DNA of 63,193 nt, the filler included, from Reclinomonas americana ATCC 50394 (lineage: Eukaryota): assembly GCA_048213135.1 (NCBI GenBank). It is 13 parts of 13 records of this genome, joined end to end, with 100 filler letters (N's around TTAATTAATTAA, not from the genome) between each part and the next. Parts side by side here need not be neighbours in the genome. Positions count along the whole stretch, not along the records: positions 20,241 to 36,586 come from AFZH01021677.1; 12 more parts are not named here. One strand, 5' to 3'. The position numbers and the translations under genes are program-made. The notes beneath the pieces are model-generated. The model was not told the origin of the DNA and made no database searches. It worked only from the letters and a program-made list of their open reading frames with translations. Shown one piece after another: positions 1,854-46,224 of the stretch (the stretch's first letter is position 1; each line of letters opens with the position of its first letter).

Positions 1854-3273
1854 TGTGACTTGACTGACATCTATTTTCTCATTTGTGTGTGTGCATGTGT
1901 AGTTGCGAGGTGTGCACGGCGGGCATTCGCGGCAAGTGTCCAGTGTGTCGCGCTGAGGTCCCGGCCGGAGTGCAGCTGCAGCTCAACAGGCCGCTGATGG
2001 ATCTCATGGAGCGCTTCCGCATGGTGGAGATTGGAGGAGGAGGAGGAGGGAGCACGCCGACACCCGCACCTCAGCAGCAGCAGCATCAGTCGCGGTCTGA
2101 CGATGGTGCCTCGTCATCATCCGCGGCCGCACCTGTGGTGGCTGGTGCAGAGGGCACAGCTGCTGCTGCAGCAGCTGGAGATGGTGAAGGGGCAGTGGCG
2201 GCAGCAGCAGGTGCAGCAGGAGCAGCAGCAGAGCCTCCGCCACCACCGGCGACTGCGGGAATGGTGCTGGAGGAGGGCGTGCTGGCGTGTGCGCGGTGTG
2301 GGGAGATGTCGTCGCCGGCGCATGGAGTGTATCGGCTGGCTGCGTGTGCGGGGCATGGCGTGCATGCGGCGTGCTTGGTGGCGGCGGTGCGGAGGCTGGT
2401 GGAGAGTCAGGATATGAGTGCGCAGCTCGAGTGTGGCGCCGGCGCATGCAATAGTCGTTGCGTGGAGGTGCCCGCCTGCTCGTTTTACTCCCCCCTCACC
2501 TGTCGCTCCTGTGCGCGCAGCTATACCGTTGATCATCGTGCAGCGCGCGTTGCGGTTCGCGGAGGAGACGGCGCTGCTGGATCAGTACGACGACTTTCTC
2601 AATCGGCAGTTCGCCTCGGGAGCGCGCATCACGCCGTGTCCGGGGGTGCGTGTCATGTGTCGATAACGTTCCTCCTCTGCGTCATGACGCAGGTTCCTCA
2701 TCTTGTGTGTGCGCGTCTCTCTCTCGCAGTGCGGCAGTTTTTGTCTGCCCGAGGATGCAATCGAGTTGGAGGCCGAGTGCATGTGTGGTGTCCATTTTTG
2801 CTTCAAGTGCGGACAAGAGTGGCGCAACCGGGGTCACCGCATGCCGTGTGGCAACGACGGCTGCGAGCCGTCCATCAACCAGCGCCTCGTGCTGTGCGAC
2901 GAACACGTTGCGTTTTTTTCGTTGCACACATTTTACATGTGCGCACACATATTCACGCGATGCTGTCGAACAGCGCGCTCTTCGACACGGTGTGCCGTCC
3001 ATGCGATTGTGCCCACACTGCAGTGCCCTGCTCGGTACGCTTGCCATCCGTGCGGCTTTTCACTCCCCCCGCATCATGATTTCTCACACCTGACTGTGAT
3101 TTTCGATTGCAGACTGCCACAACCTGGTGGAAAAGCACGTCAACTGCCCCCACTGCCACGGCAGATTCTGCATATCGTGCCTACGTGCGCCACGCAGCCC
3201 CGACGATAGGAATTGGTGCATGCACAATCGCCCATGCCTGGCGGCCCCCAGGCAGCGTCTCCTCGATCAGTGA
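1854..3273 (+). CDS. N-terminal RING + RBR (RING1-IBR-RING2) protein with the catalytic Cys substituted; 5' end lies in the gap
   Basis: CEVC...CPVCR..NRPLMDL RING; RING1 (CARC..YRLAAC.GH.VH.AC); IBR (CMCGVHFCFKC); RING2 spliced as MRLCPHCSALLDCHNLVEKHVNCPHCHGRFCISCL; ends CLAAPRQRLLDQ*. Confidence 0.8.
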
Positions 3274-10469: not shown

Positions 10470-12764
10470 CCTGCCTTCCTGCCTTGGGCTGTGAGCTGAC
10501 TTTGTGTGTTCAGCAACTTGCGCATCATTCGTCACATGACGCGCGAGGAGGCCGTGGAGATTCTCACGCGTGTGGGAGCGGATAGTGGGCGCGCGCATCC
10601 GACGTTGGTGCCTGGATGCCGCGTGGAGTGCATCCGCGAAGTGGGCCCCATTCATGTCGGCGGTGTGTGCTTGTGTTGCTTTGCATGTTGGTTGTCCGCA
10701 GTCGCTTATCCGCGCACGCAGACCAAGGTACGCTGTGGGATCATGACGACTCGCCGCCGACTTGGTGCGTGCTCATATCACGGCTCTCGTGTCTTATGTC
10801 ATGTGTTAACTTTATTTGTGTGTGCGTGCGTGCGCAGCTACGTCACGTGGGATCGACAGGATTTGCAGACCGAGGCCACGCAGCCGATTCGCGCGCAACT
10901 GGCGGGCGCTCGCGCCGCCAGCGGCTACTGGTGCAACGACGCGTGAGTAGTCGTAGTAGCAGTCGCGAGATAGATGCGCATGTGCGTGTGCGTTCCGCGT
11001 GGCGACTCATGTTCTGTTTTATTGCCGTAGGGATTTGCGTGTGGTTTCACCGCCGGGTGAGGGTGCTAGTGCCGCTGGTCCCGGTCGTTTCTTGGCGAGC
11101 GGCTCGTCGGCGGCCGCTCCTCGAGTACCGGTGCGGTCGGTCGGTGCCCCCAGCGGCCAGACCTACCAGCAACTCAGCGACTACGCCGAGCACTTGCGCA
11201 ACAGCACCGGCAGTCGTGTGCGAGTGGTCGTTGCGTACGGCAACGTCCAAGTCGGCGGTATGTGGTCGACGCACATTTGTTATTTGCCTGCTGTGCACTT
11301 GTTATTGATTGTGGTTGGCAGATATCGGCAAGCTGCAGTTTGTCGACTACTTGCCGCCGGAGGACATGATTACGGAGGCTTACCCGCCACCATGGTTTGT
11401 GGTGCTTTGCAAGCAAGGTCTATATTCTGCGAGCTCACAATATTCCGTGAATTACAGCTACGTCACATTCGACCGCGAGCTCAATTCAACTGCCGAGGTT
11501 CCGCCAGCGCACGACTTGTACGACGTGAATCCGCCGCGTTCACGCGGAGCGTGGGTTCCTGTGGAGTTGCGCCGCGAAATTGTTCGATATTTTTTGATGC
11601 CGTGTTTTGATGCTCACATATAAGTGCAGGTGCCTGCAAGTGGAGAACTCGAGCCGCGCCCCACCGAACTCACCGCCGCCGCCCTCCTCATCGCGTGCGC
11701 GACCATCGCTCCCCGCCGGCGTGCAAGTGATGACCGACCAAAGTCTACAGTGTGTCGTCTGCACCGACCGCAGCGGCTCCGTCTACCGTCTGCAGTGCAC
11801 GCACGGAATACACGGCGAGTGCATTCGTGACTCCATTGGCCCTCTGGTGGCCTCGGACTCGCGTCATCCGCTCAAGTGCCAGCAGCGCGGATGCACCCAG
11901 GGTGAGTGGCTTCATTCGTGATTGAATTGAATCTCACCCTGCCATCTCACTGTTGGTCGCAGCGGTCCCGCTGGAGGTGGTGCACCATGCCGCCGTCGAG
12001 GGCGGCTTCGAGCCGGCCGCCGGACAGTACTTTGACCTGCTCAATCGTCAGTTTGTCATGAGTGGCAAGTCCAAGACGTGCCCGCGGGTGTGTTTCCACT
12101 GCTCCCTCTTGTCATCATTTCACGGCGCACTGCTCACGTTTTTTTCGTGCTTACAGTGCCGTGCATCCATCATGCCCGAGGATCCGAACCTGCGTCAGGT
12201 CACCTGCGCTCTCTGCAACACTCGGTGAGCATGAACTGCCGCCTCGTCCTCGTTGCTGGCGGTATCCTCACTCCCACACTCTGCGTCACAGTTTCTGCAT
12301 GCGCTGTCAGAGCCAGTGGCGGGATGCTGCCAACCAACAGTGGTGCGGCAACGATCAGTGTGACTCGGTCGGTCCCAACTCTCTGCTGCGCACGTGCGCC
12401 ACCAAGTCCATCTCCGGCCTTCCTGGCCAGGTGCCGATCATGCGTGCGTGCCCCTCGTGTCACTATGTGCAAGGTGTGGTGCACGACAGAGGACAATTTT
12501 GATTGTGCGTCCTCGTGTAGCTCACTCCTGTCACTGCAGAGCACTCTACGGCCTGCAAACATATGGCATGCCAGCAGTGCGGCGTCAATTACTGCTTCCG
12601 CTGTCTACTTCCACAGCGCAATGGCTTGTGGCAGTTTCGTTGACAAGAACCGCTGCTGTCATCGTCGTCCGTCCGTGTGCTAATCATTTTCCTCTCGCGC
12701 CAACAGGTGTGGTTCATTCCTCGACCCGTGCAATGTTGCACCTCGGCAAACCGTACCCGAATAA
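10470..12764 (+). CDS. RBR E3 ubiquitin ligase with at least two CPH/SH3-like modules; 5' end lies in the gap
   Basis: Modules LVPGCRVECIREVGPIHVGDQGTLW..YVTWDR and DYAEHLRNSTGSRVRVVVAYGNVQVGDIGKL..YVTFDR; RING1 (CVVC..YRLQCTHGIHGEC); IBR; RING2 MRACPSCHYVQEHSTACKHMACQQCGVNYCFRC; ends CNVAPRQTVPE*. Confidence 0.88.
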
Positions 12765-25212: not shown

Positions 25213-28200
25213 ATGGACACGCAAAAGCAGCAGGTGAGTGTGAACTGCGTGTCACGAGTGCGAGTGAGATGGCGCTGAGAAAAGTGCGTGCTGTGCAGGA
25301 ACTGTCGCGCATGCTCGCGGCCATGGGCCACGAAGCCGTCGAGCGCCTTCGCCGTGCCTCGGTGCTCATCACTGGCCTCAGTGGACTTGGTGCAGAGATT
25401 GGTCAGTCTCCCTCTCCCTCTGTCTGTTCATCACAGGGCGTCTCTCACCCCAATGCGAAATCAGCCAAGAACCTCGTCTTGTCAGGCATCCAGTCACTGA
25501 CACTGCATGACGATCAGGCGACCACATGGAACGATCTCTCGTCGCAGGTGCACTCGCTCTTTCCCCTCTGACTGCTGTCCACTGCACGTTGGTCGCTGAG
25601 TGTTGTCCGCATGTAGTTCTTCTTGGGTCCGGACGACGTGGGCCAGAACCGCGCCGAGCGCAGCTACGCAGGTGTGGCCGAGCTCAACCCCGACGTGTCG
25701 GTGCGTGTCAACACGGAGGGCGCGCTGCCGAGTGACGAGCTGTTGCGGTCGCATGCGGTTGTCGTGGTGGTCGACAAGCCGGCGCGCTCGCTGCTGAGTC
25801 GCGTGGAGCGCACGTGTCGCGAGGCCGGCACGCACCTGGTGTGGGCCGAGAGCCGAGGCCCCTTTGGTGGCGTGTTTTGTGACTTTGGACCGGCGTTTGT
25901 GTGCTCTGATGTCGACGGGAAGAGCTGCCAGCCCATGAGCATTCTCACCATTGTTGCGCACATGCAATTTTCTCTGTCTCGGACACAGCTCGCTTTCTCT
26001 GACACTGTTGATGCAGACCGATCATGGTGAGGTGGTGGTGCACGACAGCACTCCGGCGGACAACGTGTACCGCGGCTCGCTGGTGCGTTTTGTGTGTGTG
26101 TGTGTGTGTGTGGTCCTCCGTCTTTCGTGTTCGTGTCCGTGCTGAGTGGTGGCGTCCGGACAGGTGGCCTTCTCCGAGGTCGTCGGCTGCGAGGGCATCA
26201 ATGACAGGCAGCTGCGCGTGGAGGAGGTCCACGGCAACACCATCATGGTGGGCAAGCTGGCGGATCATGGCATCACTGGCGAGTACGCCAGCGGCGGCTT
26301 GGTGCGACGCATCAAGGAGCCGAAGACCATGGCCTTCGTTGCGTCATTGCAGAATGCACTCTTTCGCCATCATACATTCACTCACATCTCCTCACACCAC
26401 ACCAGAAACCGCTGAGCGAGTCGATTGTGTCGCCCGACTTCAACGTGGAGACTGGCGAGCTGAAGGATCACCTGCGACGCGGCGTGCACCTCGGTTTCCA
26501 GGCCATTCACGAGTTCGAGGCTGAGGTCGGCGGCCTTCCTCGCTCGGCTTCCGTCGTTGCGTTTTGTTGTACACGCTTTTCTGTTTGTGTGTCACGGCTC
26601 ACCTTCTGCGCACCCCCAGGAGGATTCTGAGCGCGTCATTGCCATTGCGCGCCGCTTGGCCGGTGACGCCGCGCCGCTTGACCGCGACGAAGTGGACGTG
26701 GTGCGCACGCTGTCGTTCTTTGCCCGTGGCAATCTCAACAGCATGGTCAGTGTCGCCGTTTTTCTTCCTACCCCCTCGTTGTGTGCTGACCTTTCTCTCT
26801 CTCTCCCCCATAACAACAGGCTTGCGCTCTCGGTGGTTTCGTCGCGCAGGAGGTTGTCAAGGCCGTCTCCGGCAAGCTGCAGCCGTTGAAGCAGTGGATG
26901 TACCTCGACGTGTGCGAGATCCTTCCGTACGACGCCCCGCTGCCAAGTGCCGAGTACGAGCCTGTTGCGTCGCAGTTGACACCCCACTGTGCACTCCACT
27001 CGCTCACCTCCACCCCCCCCCCCTCTTTCTCTCTCCCGCAGCGCAACAACCGCTACGACGGACAAGTTGCGGTCATTGGGCACACGCTGCAAGACGAGCT
27101 GATGAACAAGAAGATCTTTGTGGTTGGTGCCGGTGCACTCGGCTGCGAGTACCTCAAGAACCTGGCACTCATGGGCTGCGGCTGCGGTCCCGACGGCCTC
27201 GTCACGGTGCGTACACCTATGCACCACGTGCATTTTTTTCTGATTCACTCACTTGCTCGCTGAGCAGGTGACTGACATGGACGCCATTGAGACGTCGAAC
27301 CTGAATCGCCAGTTCCTCTTCCGCCGCCACCACGTTGGAGTTCGTCCCTTGTGCCCCCCATTCACGTGTACCGCCGCCCATGTTGCTGATCTACCTCTCC
27401 CCTCTGCGCAGCAAATGAAATCCAAGGTGGCCGGTGAGAGCGTCAAGCGCATCAACGCCGACTTCCACGTGCGTTCGTTGGAGAACCGCGTCAACGATAC
27501 CACCGACGCCACCTTCTCCGAGGAGTTCTGGCTCTCACAGAACCTGGTGCTCACTGCCGTCGACAGCTTCGAGGCGCGTCGTTCCATCGAGAAGCACTGT
27601 GTGGCCGCGGGCATTCCGTTCTTCGATTCGGGCACTCTGGGTGTGGAGGCTCACTGCCAGGTTTGTACATGTGTAGCGCTCTATGTCGACACACGCTCTA
27701 ACGACATCAATACTCTCTGCAGCCCATTATCCCCCGCTTGACAGTGCTCTTCACTGCCCATCGCGACTCGCCCGACCGCAAGGAGATTCCAGTGTGCACG
27801 AAGAAGTACTTCCCGTACCAGCCGGAGCACACGATTCAGGTCTGTTGATTGATTTAGTGTTTGTTGTTGTTGTTGCCACTCTACTCATCCTCTTCTGCTC
27901 TCTCGGACCTGCAGTGGGCACTCGACGAGTTCGCCAATCACTTCACCCTCATTCCGCAACGCGCCAACGCATACATCACCGACGGCGCCATGTTTGAGGA
28001 GAAGTTCAAGGGCATGGAGCGTGGCACGGTGCGTTGAGAATCAAAAATAATAATCGTCTGCCTGTGTCACTTGGCTAACTCGCATGCACCTGGGGACACA
28101 GATGGTTCGCCAGCTGCACTCGTTCCTGGTGGCCGACCACGCGAGCACATTCGAGGACTGCGTCGTGTGGGCACGCAAGCTGTTCGACGAGTACTACCTG

Positions 28201-29585
28201 CGTTCAGTGCGTGTCCTGCTGCAGACGTACCCACCGGGGTGCCTCGACAAGCACGAGCAGCCGTTCTGGAGCGGCACCCGCCGTTTGCCGCAGGAGATCG
28301 CTTTTGACCCGTCTGACCCTGTGCATGCCGATTTCGTTGTCGCCGCCTCCATCCTGCGCGCGCAGACTATGGTCATTGACGATTCGCTGATCCCTCGCCT
28401 GCCGCTCGCCGCCCTTCGCGAGCATGTCATCTCCATTGCCACGGCGCGTGAGAGTGCAGCTGGCGCATCGGCCGCCGAGGAGGAGGCTCTCGCTGCCTCG
28501 ATTGCCTCCGCTCTGGAGGCAGAGGCGGCCGACGAGCATGCCAGCAAGGCCGGCACGGTGTCGGCGACACGCACCCAGGGCCCGCAGCGCTCGGCTGCCG
28601 CTCGCCTTCCGGAGCTGCCGTCGTCGGAGGAGCTGCACGGGCGAGTGGTACCACCTCGCAGCCTCACGTTCGAGAAGGACGAGGTCGGCAACTGGCACGT
28701 GGAGTTTATTCAGACGGCCAGCAACCTGCGATCGCGTTGCTACCGGTATGTGTGCCTCCTTTTTTTGCGGCTTTGCTGTCGTTTACAATGTGCTCATGTA
28801 CTCGGTCTCTCCGCACAGTCTGCGTGAGGTGGACCGACTGGAGGCGCAAGTCACTGCTGGTCGCATTGTGCCGGCGCTCGTGACCACCACCGCCTTTGTC
28901 ACGGGTCTCTCAGGGTTCGAAGTGCTGAAAGTTGAGTGTTGTGCGATTCACTTTGATCGTGTTGCATGAGCACTGAAATGTGTGTGCATGCACAGTACCT
29001 GCAAGGCAAGGGTGTGGAGTGCTACATGTCCTCGTTTATCAACCTCAGTGTTCCGCAAGTGCTCGTCATGTTTGCCGACGCCTGTGGCACGGTGAGCGCG
29101 CAACTGACTTGCCTCAATGGCACCGTAAATTGCATGCTTATTCGTGTTTTTGCAGTACGATTTCGCCGGTCAAGAGTACACGGCGTGGGACTCGATCCGT
29201 GTGGACGCTGAGGCGGCGGCGACTGTGGGTTCCTTTGTTGACCATCTGGAGCGCACATACGGAGTGATTGTCGGCTCTGTGGCCGGTGCCGACAACACGT
29301 TGTGGTACATGGACATGTGGAAGGGCGACAAGTTGGCGACGGGTCGTGCCAAGACGTTGCGTAGGCTTGATGGTGACGATGGGTCGTCTTTGATGTGCTG
29401 ATGGTGATCACTCCGGAAAAAAATGCAGATTTGCCGAGTTGCAGGGCGCCAGTTCGTCGTCAGCAGCTCCGCAAAAGTGGCTGCAGCTGCACGTGTCGGT
29501 CGACCGCGGAGAGACCATGTACTCGACGCAGCCGGTGCCTGGCGAGACCGTGCGCATGCCGGCAGTCTTTGTCGCACTGTCTTGA
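25213..29585 (+). CDS. Ubiquitin-activating enzyme E1 (UBA1/UBA6 family), divergent, 19 exons
   Basis: [77 protein letters not shown]; catalytic IPVCTKKYFP..EHTIQWA (Cys codon 27795); FEKD; AGRIVPALVTTTA; C-terminal UFD-like region. Confidence 0.95.
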
Positions 29586-29706
29586 TCAATCACACACACG
29601 CACACACGCACACGCACGTCCTCAACTTTGAAGCAATAATACAAGAGCGGGTGTTCGTTCGCTGCATCAAACAATTTTGCCACTTATATTTTTCTCGTCT
29701 CGCCAT

Positions 29707-32700
29707 TCAATCTGCTATCTGCTGCCGGTCTGCGACGGGACACGGCGTCAAGAAGATGCCACACCTGTCAATCGGGCAACAAGAGCGTGTCAGAAGCCAA
29801 CAGGTGGAATGGCGCACGACAGAAGGCTACGTAACGGCCAGTCACCACCTCGTGGCTTCACTTGCAAACAACGGAAACAGAATTCGGTGCCACACTGTTG
29901 CGCGCGGAGAGAGTGAGAAGGCACTTTTCGTATTTTAGCAAAGCGTGAATACGTACCCCTGCTCGTGTGCATCGCACATGCTTGCAGGCCTCGGCGTGCT
30001 CTGCACAGCGCCCGAAACCATGAGCGACAGAAGCAAGAGTTACACGCACAGACAACGCACCGACAAGGGTATGACATCTGGGGCACGCGCGAATCGCCGG
30101 CACGGTACCAGGCAAGCCGCTGATTGTCTTGGTGCCGCATGTACGTAGCACGACGCTTACACCCGACGAATCGCAGTCTGCATTGCCACACCAGCGTCCG
30201 TCGGCACCCGATCGCCACGACCTCTCACAGCGCAAACAAAATCTACGGGTGCGCGCGCACACACACAATCGTCGTGAATACCACCGCCTGATGACATTGC
30301 CACACTGCAGAGAGAGGGAGAGAGACGCAACTCGGTACTGCACAGGCCACAAGTGATGCGCCGCAGGTTCGGATCTTCAGGCATGATGGAAGCTTGGCAC
30401 TGCCGACACACACACCCAAAGCACTGGTAAGAAGAATAGATGCAGAGTGGCTGGCAATCACTGGCGAGTGCGACAAACCCGGCTGTTCGGGCACGTCTTG
30501 GCCTTGCCGGTGAGGAATTGTCGATTCAGCAAGTCAAAGTACTGGTGCGACAACTCCTCGAATCGCGCCTCGCTGGCGGCACTGGTGACCACGTCCAGTG
30601 GAACGACTGCCAGTGCACGAGTGAGTGGATGAAATCAGTTCACGCGCACGAGACGAGGAAGCGCAACTGGCTTTGCATCCACCGCGACAGCAAGCCAGTG
30701 GCCGAGTCGAGTCCTCTCGAATGAGAAGCTGCAATTGTGCACGCATGCACTCGGCGTGCACGCCGTGCGAGCATGGCAGGCGGTACACAGTGCCCTCGTT
30801 ACCCGTGCAGTACTCGCACGTGCATCCGCCAGTCGTCTCCAGTCGCACATTGCTGCGCATGGTCGGCATGGGCCCGCCGCCGCTACCACTTGCCGCAGCC
30901 GCTGCTGCTGCGCTGGCCGGCGCCTCTGCCGCTCTTGCCAAGCGACGCATGGTAGGAGGGGCCATTGTCATGTCCTCCAGCTGGAGACATCTGCGCACGG
31001 AGGGGTAGTGAGCAAAAGACGGCGAACATGCTGAGGATGGAGGCGGCCGAGGAGTCGCAACTCCAGTGGCATCCACTGTCCGCGATTGGCGAATGGCGCA
31101 AGGTCGGGGCACTCGTCGGGCACGAAGGCGTCGGATTGAAGATCGCGATCAAAGGTAACATAGCTGCAGAGCGATTTAGCGTCAGCGCACAACTACAGAC
31201 AAACTCGTGCACGGCATGCACTCACCATGGTGGTGGGTACGCCTCGCCTCGCAGATCTGGTGGCGGCAAGTAGTCGACGTGTTGCAGCACTCCACGATCT
31301 GTGCCCCAAGAGCGCATCAGATGAACACGTAGCGTTCACAAACAGTGTGCTCACGCGCGCCACTCACCACCAACTCGCACGGTTCCGTGTGGCCGAATGA
31401 CATTCACACGCTCGCCGACACGAGTACGCAGCTGCTCGCAGTACTCGTCCAGAGCGGCGGCATCAATGACTGGCTCTGCGGCGCGCTTTATCAGTTCATC
31501 TGGTACCACCACAACCACCACCACAACAACAGCAAGACATGCAACTCCACCTTCAGGAATGACTGGAGTCGAGCCCGACGCCGCTCCAACAGCACCGCCA
31601 CCAGGCACTGCAGGTACCGCTGCCGGTTGGGCTCCAACCACGACTCGGATATCACTGCGACACAAGAAAGGTCAGTTGACTCTACATACAAGAGCGCACG
31701 ACGAGCGACGCACGAGTCATTGACCCAGAAGCCGCTCTCTGCGCGACAGCCGGCCAACGCAGCGCGCATCGGCATGGCGCTGTCGGATTGCAAATCGGCG
31801 CGTTCCCAGCTCACATAACTGCATGAAAAATGAGAGTGAGCCACACGCTCATACCAACAAGCGCAAGGCAGGAGAATATGCACTCACCATGTCGGCGGGT
31901 ACTCGTCGTGCTCCCACAGCGTTCCCTTGTCTGTCGATTTCGCCAGCAAACAAATAAGTTCATCGTCGCAACCACGCTGCTGCGATGCACAACTCACCGC
32001 CAACATTGACGGGCCCCACGGCACGGATGCACTCGACCCGTGTGCCAATGCTGATTTGGCCGGCGCCACCTCCGCCACCACCGCCGCCGCCGCCTCCACC
32101 GCCGCCACTACCAATGGCACCACCACCACCCAGTCGGCGCAGCAAGGCCAGCGCCTCATCCCGCCGCTGGTGCCGAATGATGCGTAGATCGCTGCGACAC
32201 ACACTCAGCAACAGCATGCTGCACAATAGACAAAGAGACGCGCCACACTCAACCGGGGGAACACCCAGTAGCCGTGGCTGCGTGGACACCCCGCATCCAC
32301 CGCCTCACGCGGCACGAGGCCGCTCGTCCACCGCAAGTTTCGATCCCACGACACATAGCTGCACAACAGTCAACAACAACCCTGTGCCGCACACGCTCAC
32401 GCAGCAAAAAAACGCAACAAGCCGCCACGCTCATGACTGACAATGAACGTTCCCTTGTCTGCATGCCACGTACTCATCAGTGACAAGCATAGTGGGGCGG
32501 GAGACCCTCCACACACAACACACCTCCTTGTCGCACAGCAGCATCCTGCATGCGTATGCACTCGACCCTGTCAAACATCTCAATCGACTCCTCCACAAAC
32601 CCGCCATACGCGTCGCGGTCGCCTCCAAAGTCCGCCAGCGTGAGGATCTCATCCTCCTGATCATCCACTTGCGGCGCCTCCTCGTCTCCATGCCGCTGAT

Positions 32701-32951
32701 GCTCTTCCTCACCTCCTCCTCCACCACGAAGTTGCTGCTGTTGCTCTTGCTCATGCTCTGTGTGTGTGTGTTCGGTTAGGGATGCATCACTGTGTGGCAC
32801 AACACGCGATGCGTAACGAATGAGGCTGCCCAGCAGCAGCAGCATAGCAAGATCCTTTTGTATGTTCCACGCACACACACACGCACACATGACGTTGTCA
32901 GATGGAGTGTGCAGTGACTGCGGAAACTCTGTACGCAACTTGCGCGTTCAT
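29707..32951 (-). CDS. RBR E3 ubiquitin ligase with three CPH/SH3-like modules
   Basis: Three RVxxIR..V..GD.G...YV[ST][WF][DE]R modules; RING1 CEYC..YRLPCSHGVHAEC; IBR; RING2 IRACPRCHTLVEHAEACKHVRCTRAGCGTEFCFRC; ends CPVADRQQIAD*. The start codon is tentative. Confidence 0.88.
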
Positions 32952-33346
32952 CTTCTCGTTGTCTGCGGGTATGCGTTTCACACACACACAGAAAGAGAGA
33001 CACGCCCACAGAGGCACACACAGCAGCGCGCGTGTCTGTCTGAGTTTTGAGCGCCGGACGACAGTGTGTGTGCGGACGGAGCTCGCGCGCTGGACGTGTT
33101 CCATTTGTTGCTGCAACTGCAGTGTGAGTGCCGTGTTTGTGTGCGTGGTGTCTCTGTCTGTGCGTGCGTGTGTGTGTGCGCTCTGCTGTCTGTGCCTGTG
33201 TGACTTGCGTGTGCATGAGAGTGTGCCACGTAATGTGTGTTAGTGTCCGCCTGCCTCCTATTCTCACTTTTCTCTCTCTCGCATTCGCATTTTCCAGAGG
33301 CGTGCTGTGTGTGCGCGTGTGTGCGTGTGTGGAGAGAAAGTCACAA

Positions 33347-35358
33347 ATGAGCACCGAGTGCCGCGTGTGCTTCCAGTCGTATTCGTCGGAGAGTCATGCG
33401 CAGCCGAGTTACGTTTGTTTCTCCGCGTGTGGCGCGTGCGATGTTTTTGTGCTCACTGTGTGCCGTGTCGCGCACTCGCTTGTAGTGATCAGCCAGTGCC
33501 CCACTCAGTGCACCATGTTTCGTCACCATCATCATTGCATTCGTGTTCGGTGGTCGTGGATTGACTTTCGTTGTTTGCGTGTGCTGCACAGCTGTCGTAG
33601 CTGCGCGCAGCATGTGACCACTGTGTGCCCCGTGTGCAGTGCGCCAGTGTCGCGTCCGGGTACCGACTTTGTGGTCAATCGCGCCTTCATGGACCTGTTG
33701 CAGCATGTGCCGAGGAACTCGCTCGCCGCGAATACGCCGCCTTTGCAGCTGCCTGCTCATCCTCCGCCGGACGGCGACTGGCCGCGGTATGATGGTCAAA
33801 TGCAGCCGCTTCCGCAGCCGTCGGTGCCGCAGCAGCAGCCGGCACACAATCAGCCGCATGGCCCGCCGCCAGCGCCTGCACAACGCGCAGATGAGGCGGG
33901 CCACCTTTGTGGATCCTGTGGTGCTGTGGGAGCTGCAGCATCGCTGGTGGACCTTGGGTGTGGCCACTACATTCACTCTGCTTGCTTGTGCACTTCTGTG
34001 CAACAAACAATCGAGGAGAATGACCCGTCGAGCACGTTGGTGTGCCAAGTCCGCAACTGCGATATGCGTTTCGTACTCGCCGACGAAGGAAGGCAAAGAT
34101 GCACTCTGTTTTGTCAACTCACACAATGTTCTGCTTGCCTTTCTCTTTCTTTTCTCGCCCAGCAATCGGCTTTGCGGCCATTCACTCCGCCCTCACGCAG
34201 CGCGACCAACGAGATCTGCTTCGATCGTACGACGATTTTCTCGATCGACAGATGGCCAGTGGCTCCAAGTTTACTCCATGCCCGCAGGTGCACCTCAGAG
34301 AGATGTTGGATTGGCGCCTGTTTCGTCTGATAACTCACTTTGCTTCTTGTTCTCTACTCGTGCCTGTCAACGAGCAGTGCCACTCTCTGTGTCAGGCCGA
34401 GAACGGCAACCAGATGTTTGCTCGATGCAACGTCTGTGAGACCCAGTTTTGCTTGCGATGTGGGCAGAATTGGCAGCCGGCGAGCCGCGGAATCGGATGT
34501 GGTAACGCGAACTGCCGTCGGCAGTTCCGCGACCGAGAACTACCGCCGGATTACGATGTCGGTGGTGGCCGTGCGGGTCCTCGTGGTCAACCGCCTGAGT
34601 ACATTGAATTTGGTGGCCAGCGGTATCTTGTGGTTGACCCAGCCTATGTGCCCGACCACGGCATGCAGCGGCCGCCGGGAGTTTTCGACGACCCCATACG
34701 CCCGCCGGACTTGGCGCGGCAGCAACTCGGACTCGATGGTGGTGACAGAGGCTTCAACGGCGACGTTGGGCAGCACTATCCAGCGATCAGCAGACCGCCG
34801 CAAGGCCGCCGTCGCGAGATGCTCCGTCTCGCTGACGGCACGCACGTGATGGCGGTTGCTGTGAGCAATATGCGAGGGCACCGCGATCAGTATTACCATG
34901 GTCATCCTGCGTGGTATAGTCCCACAGTGCGATCGGACGGGATCTCTGTTGGCATGCGGATCCCGCAGAGTCAGGATGTCAATGAGATGCTTGCGTCTGC
35001 ACCCGTGGTGGTGAGCAGTTGGCGAAGGTGCATGCTGTGTGTCTTGTAACAATGCTCACCTTGTTTGTTGGTCCGCAGACCGTCGGCAGTCGAGACATTC
35101 CCATGTATCGTTCATGCCCCAACTGCTCGCTTATTCATGGTTTGCTCCTCTCGAAGTTGCGATGGCGTGCATGCACGAATCTCAGCTCACTCTGCCACCA
35201 CAGACTTGCGAGATCAGCCGAATCCGCCGTACTGCGACTGCGTTTGTGACTTCACCTTCTGCTTTGCATGCTTGGCGAAGGATCCCGGAATTACGCAGAC
35301 AGGCCTTTGGCACGTTTGGCGCGGCAAGTGCCGCGTTGCAGATCGGCAGCATCTGTGA
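33347..35358 (+). CDS. N-terminal RING + RBR protein with a degenerate catalytic loop
   Basis: MSTECRVCFQSY..CPVCSAP..NRAFMDLL; RING1 CGSC..LGCGHYIHSAC; IBR CNVCETQFCLRC; long insert; RING2 YRSCPNCSLIHDLRDQPNPPYCDCVCDFTFCFAC; ends CRVADRQHL*. Confidence 0.82.
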
Positions 35359-35456
35359 GGCGTTCCTCATGATGGTTCACGAATACACTCAAGAAACTCG
35401 CGTTGTGTTCTTGCTGCCCGTTTTCCCCTGCATGTGTATGCATGTCGCCGACTGTT

Positions 35457-37994
35457 CTACTCTGCCACCATATCCGGCACATTCTGTGCGCCCTGTGCGT
35501 GGACGCACGAGGCGTAGCAGGAGAGTTCTCGTCCGTGGTGCAAGGCCCTGTGCAGAGGAACGCAAAAGATACGGCGCCGTTGGTTCGCTGCATGTGTGAA
35601 AGCACCTTGATGTGCACGCAACATGTCGCAGCGCCATGTGTCGGCCACCTCGGGGAACGACTCCTCGAACACGTTGGAGGCTGCGAGTCGTGAGAGTTTA
35701 GGCACTGGGAAAAATAAAGTGTGTAGCTGCCGCTGACACAAACACACACACGCACCGTCACACTTGTCGGAACCGGCGTCGTAGCGCGACCCGCCACCCA
35801 CCAGCGTGGAGCCGGTCGGGCACGAGACGCGCACAATACCAGCGGTGTCGACCTTTTCGCGAACCTACAGTTACAGCACGCTGGTTAGCACAATCGCTGC
35901 ACTTCGTGCGCAGTGAGGCGCAGCGGGTGCCGTGGATCTCACAATTTCGATCTTGCGCTCAGTCGGGAACTTGGCGCAGCGCGAGTAGCACGACGAGGTG
36001 TACGGGGACGAGCCTGAAAGGGGCACATGACAGCAAGTCAGGGCGAATCATGCGTGACAGCATCGTGTGTGCAGTTGAGAATAAGCATACCTGAGATTCC
36101 GACCTTGCACTGCCAGCCGTTGCCGTCGTCGCTAGGACGAGACTCCTGGAAGGCCACGCGTTCAGGCGACTCGCACGTGTGCATGTCTTCAGGCCCAATG
36201 GAGATGCCACCACCGAGAAGCTGTACCGAAGTGAACAAGAGTATAGAAAAAAGCAAACAAAGAAATGTAGCCGTCGCACCTGATATCCAGTCGGGCAGTT
36301 GGCAAGGCTCTCGCCATTGTCGTTCGCATCGTCTCGTGTGGTAACGGCAACTGTTCCAACCGGCAAACGGCAGCAGCGAGCAAAGCATGACCACTTGCCA
36401 CGCTTCACACCCCTGTACAAAACATGCAAGCAGCGAGTCAGTAGTCGGCATCGACAGCTCGCTATCGGAAATGACGCAACGTCTTGCATTGCCATCCGTT
36501 TTCGTACGGGCGACTCAGTCGCAACATGGATCTAGATGCACGTGCAGGAGGAAATGAGTGATCTCACGGTGGAGGGCGGTTTGCAANNNNNNNNNNNNNN
36601 NNNNNNNNNNNNNNNNNNNNNNNNNNNNNNTTAATTAATTAANNNNNNNNNNNNNNNNNNNNNNNNNNNNNNNNNNNNNNNNNNNNTCTCCCTTCGGTCC
36701 AGCCGGTCCGTTGTCACCCTTGGCGCCATTCTGTAGTAGATGCAAACATGAGCTGGGGAGCGCACTCACGTCAAGCCAGCACTATAACGCACCTTGCCAT
36801 CAGCGCCCTTGTCGCCCTTGTCACCCTTCGGTCCAGCTGGTCCGTTGTCGCCCTTGTCACCCTTGTCTCCCTTGGCTCCGTTCTGCATCGCACAGTGTGA
36901 GTCAATAAACAAGATTGAGGATGTGAGCTCGATGCCACTCGCCTTGCCATCAGCTCCGTTGTTTCCCTTGTCTCCCTTGTCACCCTTGTCACCCTTGTCT
37001 CCCTTGTCGCCCTTGGCTCCGTTCTGCGTCACACACATGCATGAGTCGATGAGCAAGACTTAGCGTGTGACTGTTGTCTCTCACCTTGCCATCGGCTCCG
37101 TTGTTTCCCTTGTCACCCTTGTCTCCCTTGTCTCCCTTGGCTCCGTTCTGCATCACACGCAAGCGTGAGTCAACCACCAGGGCTGAGCGTGTGACTGTTG
37201 TCTCTCACCTTGCCATCAGCTCCGTTGTTTCCCTTGTCTCCCTTGTCACCCTTTGGCCCGGCCGGTCCAGTCTGCAATGCAAGGGCATAGAAATGCATCA
37301 ATAACAAAGCAAGACTGAACGTGCGAGCGTGTTGTCTCTCACCTTGCCATCAGCTCCGTTGTTTCCCTTGTCTCCCTTGTCTCCCTTGTCACCCTTCGGT
37401 CCCTTGGAGCCCTTGTCCCCCTTCGGTCCCTTGGAGCCCTTGTCTCCCTTCTGCCCCTTGGAGCCCTTCTGCCCCTTGGAGCCCTTCTGCCCCTTGGAAC
37501 CCCTCTGTCCCTTGGAACCTTTGTTGCCCTTGGAGCCTTTGTTGCCTTTGGAACCGCGGTCGCCCTGCGGCCCCATGGGCAAGAACACACGAAGTCAGCG
37601 CGCGACGTCGATGCGGTGTGTGGACACAACACGTCCGTGTGGCGTACCTTGTTGTTGGTCTCTGCCAGATTCTCGGATTGATCTTCGTCGTCCTCCTCGA
37701 TGTTCTCGCTGTCGCTGACAAGCTCGTCCATTTGTTCCTGAAGATCTTCTGTCACGCACACGAGTGGTGTGCAAGTCAAGCACTGGCCTTGCACGGGCAA
37801 CTGATACTCGCTCCTCACCTTCCGCTGCATCCTCGTCCATGACGAGTTCTTGCTCACCAGTCACATCCTCAGAGAGGTCAAACCAGTCATCTTGGGCGAC
37901 GAGGACGTCAACGGTGGCTGGCTCGGAAACTGCGCATGCGCCGACATCAGTGATCAAGGGGGTTGCATGGCCTTCTGCACTGCACGAACACGCA
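35457..37994 (-). CDS. Collagen-like (Gly-X-Y) protein with a duplicated Cys-containing C-terminal module; 5' end lies in the gap
   Basis: Acidic region, then (GSK/GQK/GDK/GPK)n exons. After the gap are two CPTG...LGGG...ES.P....W.C modules. Assigning both sides of the 36587 gap to one gene is inferred from strand and position. Confidence 0.8.
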
Positions 37995-41556: not shown

Positions 41557-43456
41557 ATGGGGAGCAGTCAGTCGCGTCCGACCTCATCCTCTGCCTCCGG
41601 CCCAGCCACCACGGTGCCTGTCTACACAAGCAACGCAGCGGCTCTGGGTGCCACCTCCGCAGCCATTGCTCAGCGCCGTCTCGCCGCTCATCCTCCTCCT
41701 CAGCAACAACAACAACAANNNNNNNNNNNNNNNNNNNNNNNNNNNNNNNNNNNNNNNNNNNNTTAATTAATTAANNNNNNNNNNNNNNNNNNNNNNNNNN
41801 NNNNNNNNNNNNNNNNNNCAGATGGTGCCAGGCACACGAGTTCGTGCGGCGCGACCAGTGGGCCCACTCCGAGTTGGAGGTGTGTCGTTCACTCACTTGT
41901 TTCTTGCTTGTATTTGTTGAGCACCAAAAGATCTGTTTTTTTCTCGTGCAGATCTCGGCTCGTTCTACTGGCGTGATCCGGAACGTGGTGCAAGGTGCGT
42001 CCTGTGCAGTCGCTTGTTTTGGTCACTCGTCCTTTGTGTGTGTGATGTCCCTCGTTCCCCTCACACGTGTCGGGAGCAGCTACGTGAGCTGGGATCGCGA
42101 CGACCTCGGTTCGATGAGTTTCTTCCCGTTCGAGGCCCTGGTCAATGGATGCCCGAACCGCCCATCGTCGGGCTACTGGGTGTTTGATGCGTGAGTGTGA
42201 TTCGGCCGTGCACTTTGACAGCGCATCGATGCTGACGCATTGTTTCATGCAGCGATATCGAGGTGGTGGCACCAACCGGTGCGTCTCGCATTGTTCTCTC
42301 ACCACTATGTTTTCGCTCACGTACACACCTCCGCTGGGTGCAGGCGAAGGTGCGGCGACTCGCTCGGAATCAATGGTGGTGGTGCCCGACACGGCCACCG
42401 GCCTCAAGTGCGAAAACTGCATGGACGACCAGAACCCAGTGACGTACCGTCTGCCGTGTGGGCACGGCTTCTGTGCCGAGTGGTGCGAAGCAGATTGAGT
42501 GCGTTTGCGGTCTCCTCGTGCGCCGACTGACTCGGGTGTGTGCTTCTGTAGTCTCGAGGAGTCACTGAAGGCGCACGTGCGTCAACAGCTGCCATCGGCG
42601 CTGCTGTGTGTGAAGAAGGGATGCAAGACGGGTGAGTGTTTTTTCTTCTTCTTCTTCTTGTATGTCGCAGGTTGTTCACATAGAGGTGCAGAGGTTCCGG
42701 TGCCGACGATTCAACACGCGGCGATTGCACGCAACTTCCGCGATGTGGAGCGCGGCTACTACGAGTTGTTGAGTCAACAGTTTGTGGCGGCGCACGTGAA
42801 GCGATGCCCGGGAGTTGCGCGCAGCTGCTCTCTCTCTCTCTCTGTGGTCATAGACACACTGCCTGACATGCAAAAAAACCCGCCACCCGCAGTGCCAGGC
42901 CATGTGCATGCCGGAGAACACCAACGACCGCGATGTGGTGTGCGGCACGTGCCACACTCGCTTCTGCGTGAGCTGTGAGCTACGTTGGCTCACGATGCCC
43001 GGCTTCCCGTCGTGCGGCAATGTGGACTGCACGCGTGCCGGGCCCAACCTCATGCTGGCCTACTGCGGCACCAAAGTTGCGTGTCGCAGGGGGAGGGAGA
43101 GGGCAACAATGGCGGAGCTGTCTTGCTGAACAATCAAAAAAATTTGCAGTTCACGTATGGCATTGCCGAGGAGCACGGTCAGGTGCCAGTGATGCGAGCG
43201 TGCCCGCGGTGTTTCACTATTCAAGGTGCAGTGTGCATTTGTCTTGCGCGCCCGTTAGCGATATATTGCGCGGTGCTCACGATGAGTGGCAGAGCACGCC
43301 GAGGCCTGCAAGCACATGAAGTGCCAGAAGTGCCTCTGCGAGTACTGTTTCCGGTGCTTGTCGGTGCGTGAGAACGATCAGACCCCGTGGCCAGCCATTT
43401 GTGGTCACTGGAACACGCCGTGCCCGATTGCGCCGCGGCAAGTGGTGCCGGAGTGA
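41557..43456 (+). CDS. RBR E3 ligase with a CPH/SH3-like module and MGSSQS N-terminus, spanning a gap
   Basis: MVPGTRVRAARPVGPLRVGDLG..SYVSWDR; RING1 CENC..YRLPCGHGFCAEC; IBR; RING2 MRACPRCFTIQEHAEACKHMKCQKCLCEYCFRC; ends CPIAPRQVVPE*. The link to the first exon across the gap is inferred. Confidence 0.85.
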
Positions 43457-45197: not shown

Positions 45198-46224
45198 ATG
45201 TGGCCGCGGTGAGTCTCGCTGCTTGCTGTCCACTGGCTCACAACACGCTGGCGCTATCCCTTTCCTTCCTCCCTCCCTCCCTCTCTCTCTGTATTGAGAG
45301 GATGTCCGCGATCCTGTGTTTCTCCGCACGCACACTCGTGGCATTCACTCTCAATGATGCACACGCACACTCTCAACAGAGTGCATATGCGTGCGAGTTT
45401 GGCTCTGCGTGTGCTTGTCTGTGTCTGCGTGCGCTTTGTTGTTGTTGTTGTTGTTTGCACATGTCAGCAATTTCCGTGTTCTGTTTGCACTCTAGCTCTC
45501 CCCTCTCCGCTCCGCCACCTCCCACTCCCTCCATGCGCTGCGCCATCGCGCACACTCTTCTCCTGTTGTCTGCCATGCATTTCCATGGCGACTTATTGTC
45601 CGGCACTTGTGCACTCACTCACGCACACACAGCTTGAGGGTGGAATTGAGGAACTGGCAGAACACCGACACCATGACGTTGGTCAGCAACGAGACCACGA
45701 CATGGACGGCCACAGTCATCCCGGTGAGCTCTATTTTTTGTGAAGAAACACACACGCATATGTTTCGTGTCAGCAGCTGACCATGTTGTTGTTGTTGTTG
45801 TCCAGCCGCGTAACTCGCTGCTGGAGGGCTTCCCGCTCAAGCTGCGCGTGCAGTTCCCGGACTCGTACCCGCGCCAGCCTCCAGAGGTTCATGACCCTTT
45901 GACAAAGAGAAGAAAACCGCTCTCTCCTGTGTTGCTGATTCTCGCTGATCGCAGTTGTACTTTACGCCGGCGATCTACCACCCGAACTGCGACCAAAGCG
46001 ACGGTCGGCTTGTGCTGAAGAAGCTGACGGGCGAGGGCTCGGTCAACGCCGAGTACGACGTGCAAATGCCGCTCAAGGAGATTTTCACGGCAGTGGTGGC
46101 GGCCATTGATCGCCCCGAGCTCGAGTGCGCCTGCGATCCCGACATCCGCAACGCCTTCGAGAACGACTTTGATGGCGCCTACTTCCCGCAGCTCATGGAG
46201 AGCGCCATGCGTCACTCGGAGTAA
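45198..46224 (+). CDS. Divergent UBC-fold E2 (UBE2L3-like features) without the canonical catalytic Cys
   Basis: MWPR|LRVELRNWQ...TTTWTATVIP|PRNSLLEGFPLKLRVQFPDSYPRQPPE|LYFTPAIYHPNCDQSDGRLVL...IDRPELE. The first exon is tentative. Confidence 0.8.

Follow-up and report, generated by a model that had tools for sequence, protein, structure and literature searches.

Can CPH domains and a RING1-IBR-RING2 (RBR) ubiquitin ligase be joined in one protein that has no cullin? The question is raised by a locus of the protist Reclinomonas americana ATCC 50394 (assembly GCA_048213135.1) within a window of 63,193 nucleotides, the whole stretch of DNA analysed here. The eukaryotic assembly comprises 108 Mb in 16,441 contigs, of which the window joins 13 with 100-nt spacers between them; all coordinates are those of the joined window, and neighbour status is certain only for genes on one contig. 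The gene in question, termed gene A, lies on contig G000:C6210 (window 20241-36586) and is predicted to encode three CPH domains followed by RING1, IBR and RING2. Seven contigs (C6751-C6757) match window contigs with 90-96% identity in the same order and are read as a second haplotype. This common order suggests that the window contigs are truly linked in the genome.

The gene A model consists of 18 exons from the ATG at 32951 to the TGA at 29707, with introns of 48-89 nt, and yields 706 amino acids in a frame free of internal stops. Its splice sites were set by reading the minus strand, aided by paralogs and the second haplotype. All exon indels between the haplotypes are in frame (3/3), none of the intron indels is a multiple of three (0/15), and GT-AG is kept in the second haplotype for the 14 introns checked out of 17. 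An exon 4 running to 32401 was ruled out by a 1-nt haplotype indel at 32406, which falls in the intron, and the donor is now placed at 32418. Confidence in the model is lowest for the two 5′ exons (32951-32928 and 32854-32806), and the segment 31550-31500, 51 nt without a stop, may be a further intron, in which case a poly-Val run would vanish. Introns interrupt every CPH repeat at three shared places, in phases 1, 2 and 2. The end of repeat 3 and RING1 are encoded by one shared exon of 323 nt (30990-30668). The peptide quoted in the initial annotation, which had placed three repeats before RING1, is present once it is split into exons, and the model reproduces that order.

On the basis of full-length homology, traced through Pfam-positive outside proteins and a further gene of this genome (on contig C445), the repeats are CPH domains (Pfam Cul7, PF11515). 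They are mutually 25-35% identical; BLASTP aligns spliced repeats 1 and 2 as well as 2 and 3 (E 1e-10 to 3e-10) and reports no alignment for the pair 1 and 3. A hidden Markov model (HMM) built from 61 domains of outside proteins gives repeats 1, 2 and 3 scores of 35.7, 33.3 and 15.5 bits, respectively, where the best of 1000 shuffles each reach 8.2, 7.5 and 6.0 bits. HHalign pairs the spliced repeats with CPH at 99%, and the unspliced first exons at 97.3% when the Pfam-positive CPH genes of this genome (the C445 sequence) are excluded. The outside proteins come from a first-exon profile, which took in two Pfam-positive CPH exons that belong to other genes in this genome and found 46 matches among 1.84 billion proteins, 42 of them with Pfam Cul7 above its cut-off. 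In addition, an HMM made solely from eight RBR-linked spliced repeats (the RBR-only HMM) matches CPH domains of the type described below at near full length, with up to 42.5 bits (reversed controls 2.4). With this HMM, the CPH domains of two proteins score 33.8 and 23.9 bits and the MIB_HERC2 (PF06701) domains of the same two proteins score 1.4 and -1.5, and no MIB_HERC2 homology of the repeats was found in this comparison. The CPH resemblance proposed initially is thus borne out by profile comparison.

The repeats share with the CPH family (CUL7, PDB 2jng; HERC2, PDB 9l8y) the characteristic motifs and the β3 and β4 aromatic residues, but hold approximately 20 extra residues between the β3 and β4 motifs and, exon by exon, lie below Pfam's reach. 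This “long-loop” insertion recurs in the CPH domain of C445 and, among outside proteins, in P0001, P0002, P0004, P0008, P0009, and P0011, for example. P0009 matches PARC, CUL7, CUL9, and HERC2, and these alignments leave a gap of 16 residues where the insertion lies. Its structure model (pLDDT 82.9) predicts a domain with one helix, five strands and a low-confidence loop, and its first matches are the CPH domains of HERC2, PARC, and CUL7 (Foldseek E 5e-7 to 3e-6; VIA Z 11.8 and 9.8). An Atlas search returned no usable match for repeat 1 and, for P0009, only leads under 0.9.

Pfam Cul7 scores above its cut-off on C445 and on its likely allele C1940. The C445 CPH domain shares 34-45% identity with the three repeats, reaches 86 bits on the RBR-only HMM, and has the three intron sites and phases of the repeats plus one more. 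It precedes, by approximately 5 kb, a HECT domain encoded on that strand; the interval holds exon-like sequence (L029 7032-7250 to L030 ~3850), and the two domains likely belong to one large gene, a HERC2-like pairing in a protist. A survey of HECT ligases places the Cul7 domain of HERC2 at the origin of animals (PMC3673628). Another CPH gene of this genome, with a short loop (L004 1396-1900 and L005; G000:C5024 and C160), carries the tail of a possible second SH3-like module just before its CPH domain. A further Cul7 match (L003, on C51) was discarded as noise.

The long-loop variant reaches beyond eukaryotes. Several long-loop proteins are intronless and are caspase-like or kinase proteins with 2-8 CPH copies. 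One of them maps to a metagenome-assembled genome of Planctomycetota (G001) that has 14 Cul7 matches on four contigs, and in which caspase-like and other large proteins end in up to eight tandem long-loop CPH domains (L076 244-5448, L097-L104). This is the sole matching genome among 301 Planctomycetota genomes (0/300 others). P0008, encoded on a contig of 6.9 Mb, is probably bacterial as well. In a tree of 79 core CPH columns, with the insertion columns left out, all long-loop domains fall on one side with moderate support (94/84, not starred), and the repeats pair by position across paralogs. Monophyly of the named long-loop set alone is neither shown nor rejected (p-AU 0.113), and the tree cannot give a direction of transfer.

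The second half of gene A has RING1, IBR and RING2 in the usual order and with zinc-ligand spacing. A profile of six RING2 pieces of the family matches ARIH1, CUL9, parkin, and ARIH2 in PDB, with its Cys-x-His aligned to that of ARIH1 RING2 (E 4.6e-5) and to CUL9 C2249 (E 2.9e-4), the residue named as catalytic in CUL9 (PMC11257990). RING2 of gene A retains the corresponding residues, Cys658-x-His660. The initial description of the RBR unit as active holds in this sense, that catalytic residues are present, and means no more than that; the activity itself is putative. An Ariadne domain is not present because the protein ends 11 residues past the last RING2 Cys. There is likewise no room for a cullin region in the 706-residue model, and the 59 listed Cullin matches all fall outside the contigs that carry gene A and its paralogs B, C, and D (C6210, C6208, C6213, and C539), in agreement with the proposal of a cullin-free ligase.

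With allelic pairs counted, a single RBR exon gives 21 genome matches, and CPH precedes RBR in four genes: A, with three copies, and B, C, and D. Paralog B has two whole repeats and the tail of a third, and contig C15749 (L035) carries a repeat-1-like piece that fits the B junction; paralog C has at least one repeat. Both share the intron sites of the repeats, as had been noted, although they lie on other contigs than gene A, the window being a joined series. Paralog D has one CPH copy, preceded by a ZZ-like finger (E 0.0094), and copy number therefore varies as proposed. CPH was not seen on nine other contigs of the family that were examined. Between A and B, 47 of 74 residues are identical in repeat 2 and 53 of 95 in repeat 3 (56-64%), compared to 129 of 224 (58%) in the RBR core. 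Since repeats at the same position are thus far more alike than those within gene A, the three-repeat array predates the A/B split, with each repeat position conserved.

We consider it probable that gene A encodes a stand-alone RBR ligase whose three CPH domains capture targets, either avidly or as several partners, and hand them to RING2. In RBR ligases, RING1 recruits ubiquitin-loaded E2 (ubiquitin-conjugating enzyme) and the RING2 Cys relays the ubiquitin (PMC3940038). According to this scheme, RING1 of gene A would bind the loaded E2, Cys658 would accept ubiquitin as a thioester, and ubiquitin would then be passed to a protein held by CPH; no step within the ligase would involve a cullin, RBX1 or neddylation. 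The part given to the repeats is drawn by analogy with CUL7, CUL9, and HERC2. TP53 ubiquitylation by CUL9 requires both CPH and the RBR Cys (PMC11257990), the CPH domains of CUL9 and CUL7 recruit TP53 for ubiquitylation (PMC11257990, PMC9507964), and the HERC2 CPH domain binds NCOA4 weakly through its β4 Trp (PMC12318192). A Trp appears to be kept in the β4-matching strand of all three repeats, and three flexibly linked copies that keep it would allow avid or multi-partner capture. Moreover, CPH domains are all that can be recognised in the gene A product apart from its catalytic modules. It is likely that another ligase gene of this genome, itself equipped with CPH, was the source from which the module was copied into the RBR lineage, or that copying went the opposite way, and that triplication followed; by the time A and B split, the three copies had likely settled into fixed roles tied to their positions, serving avidity or several partners.

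Several observations weigh against this reading. The evidence for an SH3-like CPH fold comes from the model of a relative, P0009, and third exons alone score 1% when aligned to P0009. Repeat 2 has no N-terminal helix and repeat 3 is weak. The result with the outside-protein HMM and HHalign is partly circular, as the search profile contained CPH exons of this genome. Single exons of gene A have no Cul7 match in Pfam and no CPH structure match in PDB, being too short for such searches; an RBR-only exon profile did not retrieve CPH from Pfam or PDB, and the one exon profile that did match CPH contained the C445 CPH exon. The splicing of repeat exons to RBR exons is deduced from DNA alone. The C3H2C3 pattern of RING1, with no Pro, is not the usual one, which makes its use of E2 uncertain. 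A search of the genome for the p53 family gave no match, but the controls were silent too. Finally, the N-terminal domains of other RBR ligases are often auto-inhibitory (PMC3940038).

This last point leads to the main rival, that the repeats do not pick substrates but act as regulatory or docking modules, which shut the RBR unit or tether a partner, for example the RING-RBR protein of the adjacent gene, which lacks a catalytic Cys. We regard this as unlikely. In CUL7, CUL9, and HERC2, CPH is flexibly tethered and substrate-binding (PMC11257990, PMC12318192, PMC9507964), the linkers of gene A are Gly/Ala/Pro-rich, and paralog D, with its one repeat, has no RING-RBR partner in the stretch examined. 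However, RBR ligases are usually auto-inhibited (PMC3940038), and gene A has neither an Ariadne nor another known inhibitory domain; genes A and B each adjoin a RING-RBR gene that is conserved and whose RING2 is dead or absent, and position-specific conservation of the repeats fits fixed contacts.

It is improbable that the repeats are fast-diversifying sensors of a ubiquitin-based defence system, as the initial view of them as diversified modules might imply. Across the repeats of A, B, and C, the two haplotypes differ by 2 non-synonymous changes in 1171 sites and 19 synonymous changes in 365 sites (Fisher p 1e-10), and the repeats are under purifying selection. The proposed comparison of repeats with the RBR core gives 9 synonymous and 2 non-synonymous changes in the repeats of gene A and 10 and 0 in its core; the paralog C core has 7 and 0. 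In paralog B it is the RBR half (11750-12764 versus L034) that differs, with 24 synonymous and 18 non-synonymous changes compared to 3 and 0 in the repeats, possibly due to gene conversion or an old allele. Between paralogs, the repeats are as conserved as the RBR core, and an array older than the A/B split with conserved positions also argues against hypervariable sensors. The variable copy number (1 or 3), the expansion of the RBR clade, at least five further loci for the ubiquitin-activating enzyme (E1), and the bacterial tandem arrays on caspase-like proteases and kinases are what would speak for such sensors. It is very improbable that the model fuses two genes or that the locus is a decaying duplicate, for which a broken chimeric copy of A's RBR 5 kb away and a splicing pattern read from genomic sequence could be cited, since repeat 3 ends within the RING1 exon, the layout recurs in paralogs B, C, and D, and frame and codon changes are conserved between haplotypes.

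How does this ligase compare with known systems? Like gene A, human CUL9/PARC (PDB 8q7e, 2juf) has CPH and a catalytically equipped RBR in one chain. It differs in being a chordate fusion, 2517 residues long, of CUL7 with an ARIH gene; it contains a single short-loop CPH domain as well as ARM, DOC and cullin regions, and it depends on neddylation (PMC11257990; PMC2785787); gene A has 706 residues and three long-loop CPH domains. CUL7 and PARC genes are described as restricted to chordates (PMC2785787). As gene A has no cullin and no Ariadne domain, its match to CUL9 is likely convergent, with independent origins of the pairing. Ariadne-type RBR ligases (ARIH1/HHARI, ARIH2) and parkin, compared here by features and without a tree, share the RING1-IBR-RING2 order and the Cys-x-His site. 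Gene A differs from them in having no Ariadne, UBA-like, Ubl or RING0 domain, in its RING-H2-type RING1, and in an IBR and RING2 that end in Cys-only ligands. The tail of RING2 may resemble that of 'DDB_G0292642-like' RBR proteins.

Tandem CPH arrays without a cullin, some of them on a RING ligase, are a further likeness: P0005 and P0006 combine RING with 6-7 CPH domains, P0016 is BTB-BACK-CPH, and P0001, P0004, P0008, and P0011 join caspase-like or kinase domains to long-loop CPH. In the Mind bomb and plant KEG ligases, SH3-like repeats (MIB_HERC2 or related SH3 repeats) serve as substrate modules of a ubiquitin ligase (E3) with RING catalysis; the repeats of gene A have no MIB_HERC2 match. 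The search for CPH with RBR elsewhere found an IBR/RBR domain in none of 49 CPH proteins scanned. Word-indexed protein searches, in which a blank is weak evidence, gave no match for the IBR/RING2 exon, none for the first-exon alignment, and three proteins for the long-loop alignment, none with IBR (0/3). A shallow literature search that left subscription journals mostly outside found nothing published on CPH-RBR proteins lacking a cullin, on CPH in bacteria or on RBR partners that are catalytically dead. The combination of three CPH domains and RBR without a cullin was therefore found nowhere else in shallow searches (46 profile hits, limited literature), and every part of it is a known domain.

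Gene A does not stand alone. Between 1854 and 46913, the RBR family is represented in the window by six genes that look intact, alongside three USP-like genes, one E1 gene and two E2-like genes on consecutive contigs, in an order kept in the second haplotype (Table 1). One USP-like gene, its motif seen by eye, is on the contig of gene A; two more USP genes and two E2-like genes are on flanking contigs. Gene G has an open frame with in-frame indels, and its haplotypes differ by 16 synonymous and 14 non-synonymous changes. Genes E, G, and F are possible pseudo-ligase partners. The chimeric broken copy is either a recent shuffling event or an assembly error.

Table 1. Coordinates of gene A, its domains and exons, its paralogs, and neighbouring genes in the window.
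Feature	Position	Strand	Description
Gene A	29707..32951	-	Predicted 706-aa CPH-CPH-CPH-RING1-IBR-RING2; 17 GT-AG introns, open frame
Gene A exons 1-6	32951-32928, 32854-32806, 32757-32524, 32458-32419, 32358-32254, 32191-31998	-	
Gene A exons 7-12	31930-31888, 31818-31714, 31654-31368, 31298-31226, 31163-31062, 30990-30668	-	
Gene A exons 13-18	30606-30479, 30399-30332, 30242-30061, 30000-29957, 29894-29836, 29764-29707	-	
CPH repeat 1 (aa 64-156)	32176..32641	-	Complete, with N-terminal helix motif; β3 Trp120, β4 Trp147
CPH repeat 2 (aa 197-270)	31639..32055	-	Poly-Gly linker in place of N-terminal helix; Trp234, Trp261
CPH repeat 3 (aa 329-424)	30975..31464	-	Most divergent; ~10 residues added after β2; Phe389 at β3 Trp site, Trp415 kept
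RING1 (aa 477-524)	30675..30818	-	C3H2C3, last Cys pair without Pro; weak Pfam zf-RING_2 (E 0.0057, below cut-off)
IBR (aa 565-615)	30173..30493	-	Cys-only ligands at end; weak Pfam IBR_1 (E 0.063) and IBR (E 0.52)
RING2/Rcat (aa 645-695)	29740..30085	-	Cys658 (29986-29984), His660, Glu671 kept; 11 aa to protein end
Paralog B	10470..12764	+	5′ end in gap; repeat 1 tail, repeats 2 and 3, RBR with Cys-x-His
Paralog C	41819..43456	+	5′ end in gap; at least one CPH repeat, RBR with Cys-x-His
UBA1-type E1 gene	25209..29586	+	Tail to tail with A; usual catalytic Cys motif; Pfam ThiF, E1_FCCH, UBA_E1_SCCH, E1_UFD
Gene G	33348..35359	+	~400 bp from A, in head-to-head orientation; RING at the N-terminus, then RING1, IBR, RING2 with P-N-P for Cys-x-His
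Gene E	1903-3273	+	RING-RING1-IBR-RING2; RING2 with E-K-H, no Cys-x-His; open, conserved between haplotypes
Gene F	~14500-12950	-	Tail to tail with B; seems to end after IBR in both haplotypes
Chimeric broken copy	23576..25087	-	Start of neighbouring USP gene plus 96%-identical copy of A's RBR; 1-nt insertion, RING2 end lost; absent from second haplotype

The genome has at least five further UBA1-type E1 loci, counted after likely alleles were paired (G000:C271, C284, C841, C780, C297, C7709, C63, C91, and C6303; L066-L075), which is an unusual expansion. A cluster of this kind around each of the E1 paralogs is ruled out: tblastn with RBR, CPH, USP and E2 pieces of the window was negative in 11 stretches around six other E1-bearing contigs, as it was in nine other stretches. 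In the E2-like gene at 45949-46221 (+), Val occupies the site where the catalytic Cys is usually found and a Cys comes right after HPN; its product may be a UEV-type or shifted-site E2. Several proteins of the cluster start with Met-Gly-Ser (window 41557-41718, 23377, and 25087; L048 ~7540), which we take to be a possible myristoylation signal; gene A does not. A short contig carries a collagen-like Gly-X-Y repeat gene (window 36687-37994, -) with no counterpart in the second-haplotype series examined.

A broader proposal is unlikely: that the locus is a self-contained protist ubiquitin module, in which the active CPH-RBR protein and its RING-RBR neighbour without a catalytic Cys form a two-subunit E3, served by clustered E1, E2 and USP paralogs, with long-loop CPH from an undescribed branch shared with bacteria. 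If this were true, CPH would be an old, p53-independent binding module that was joined to HECT, RING and RBR ligases several times.

To our knowledge, CPH ligands are known only from human proteins. A protist ligase of small size that has CPH and RBR but no cullin, together with a long-loop branch that reaches bacteria, offers simple proteins in which to study the partners that CPH had before p53. Pairs of an active and a dead RBR gene next to an E1 gene represent a testable clustered ubiquitin module, and the CPH-plus-RBR pairing known from CUL9 likely arose twice.

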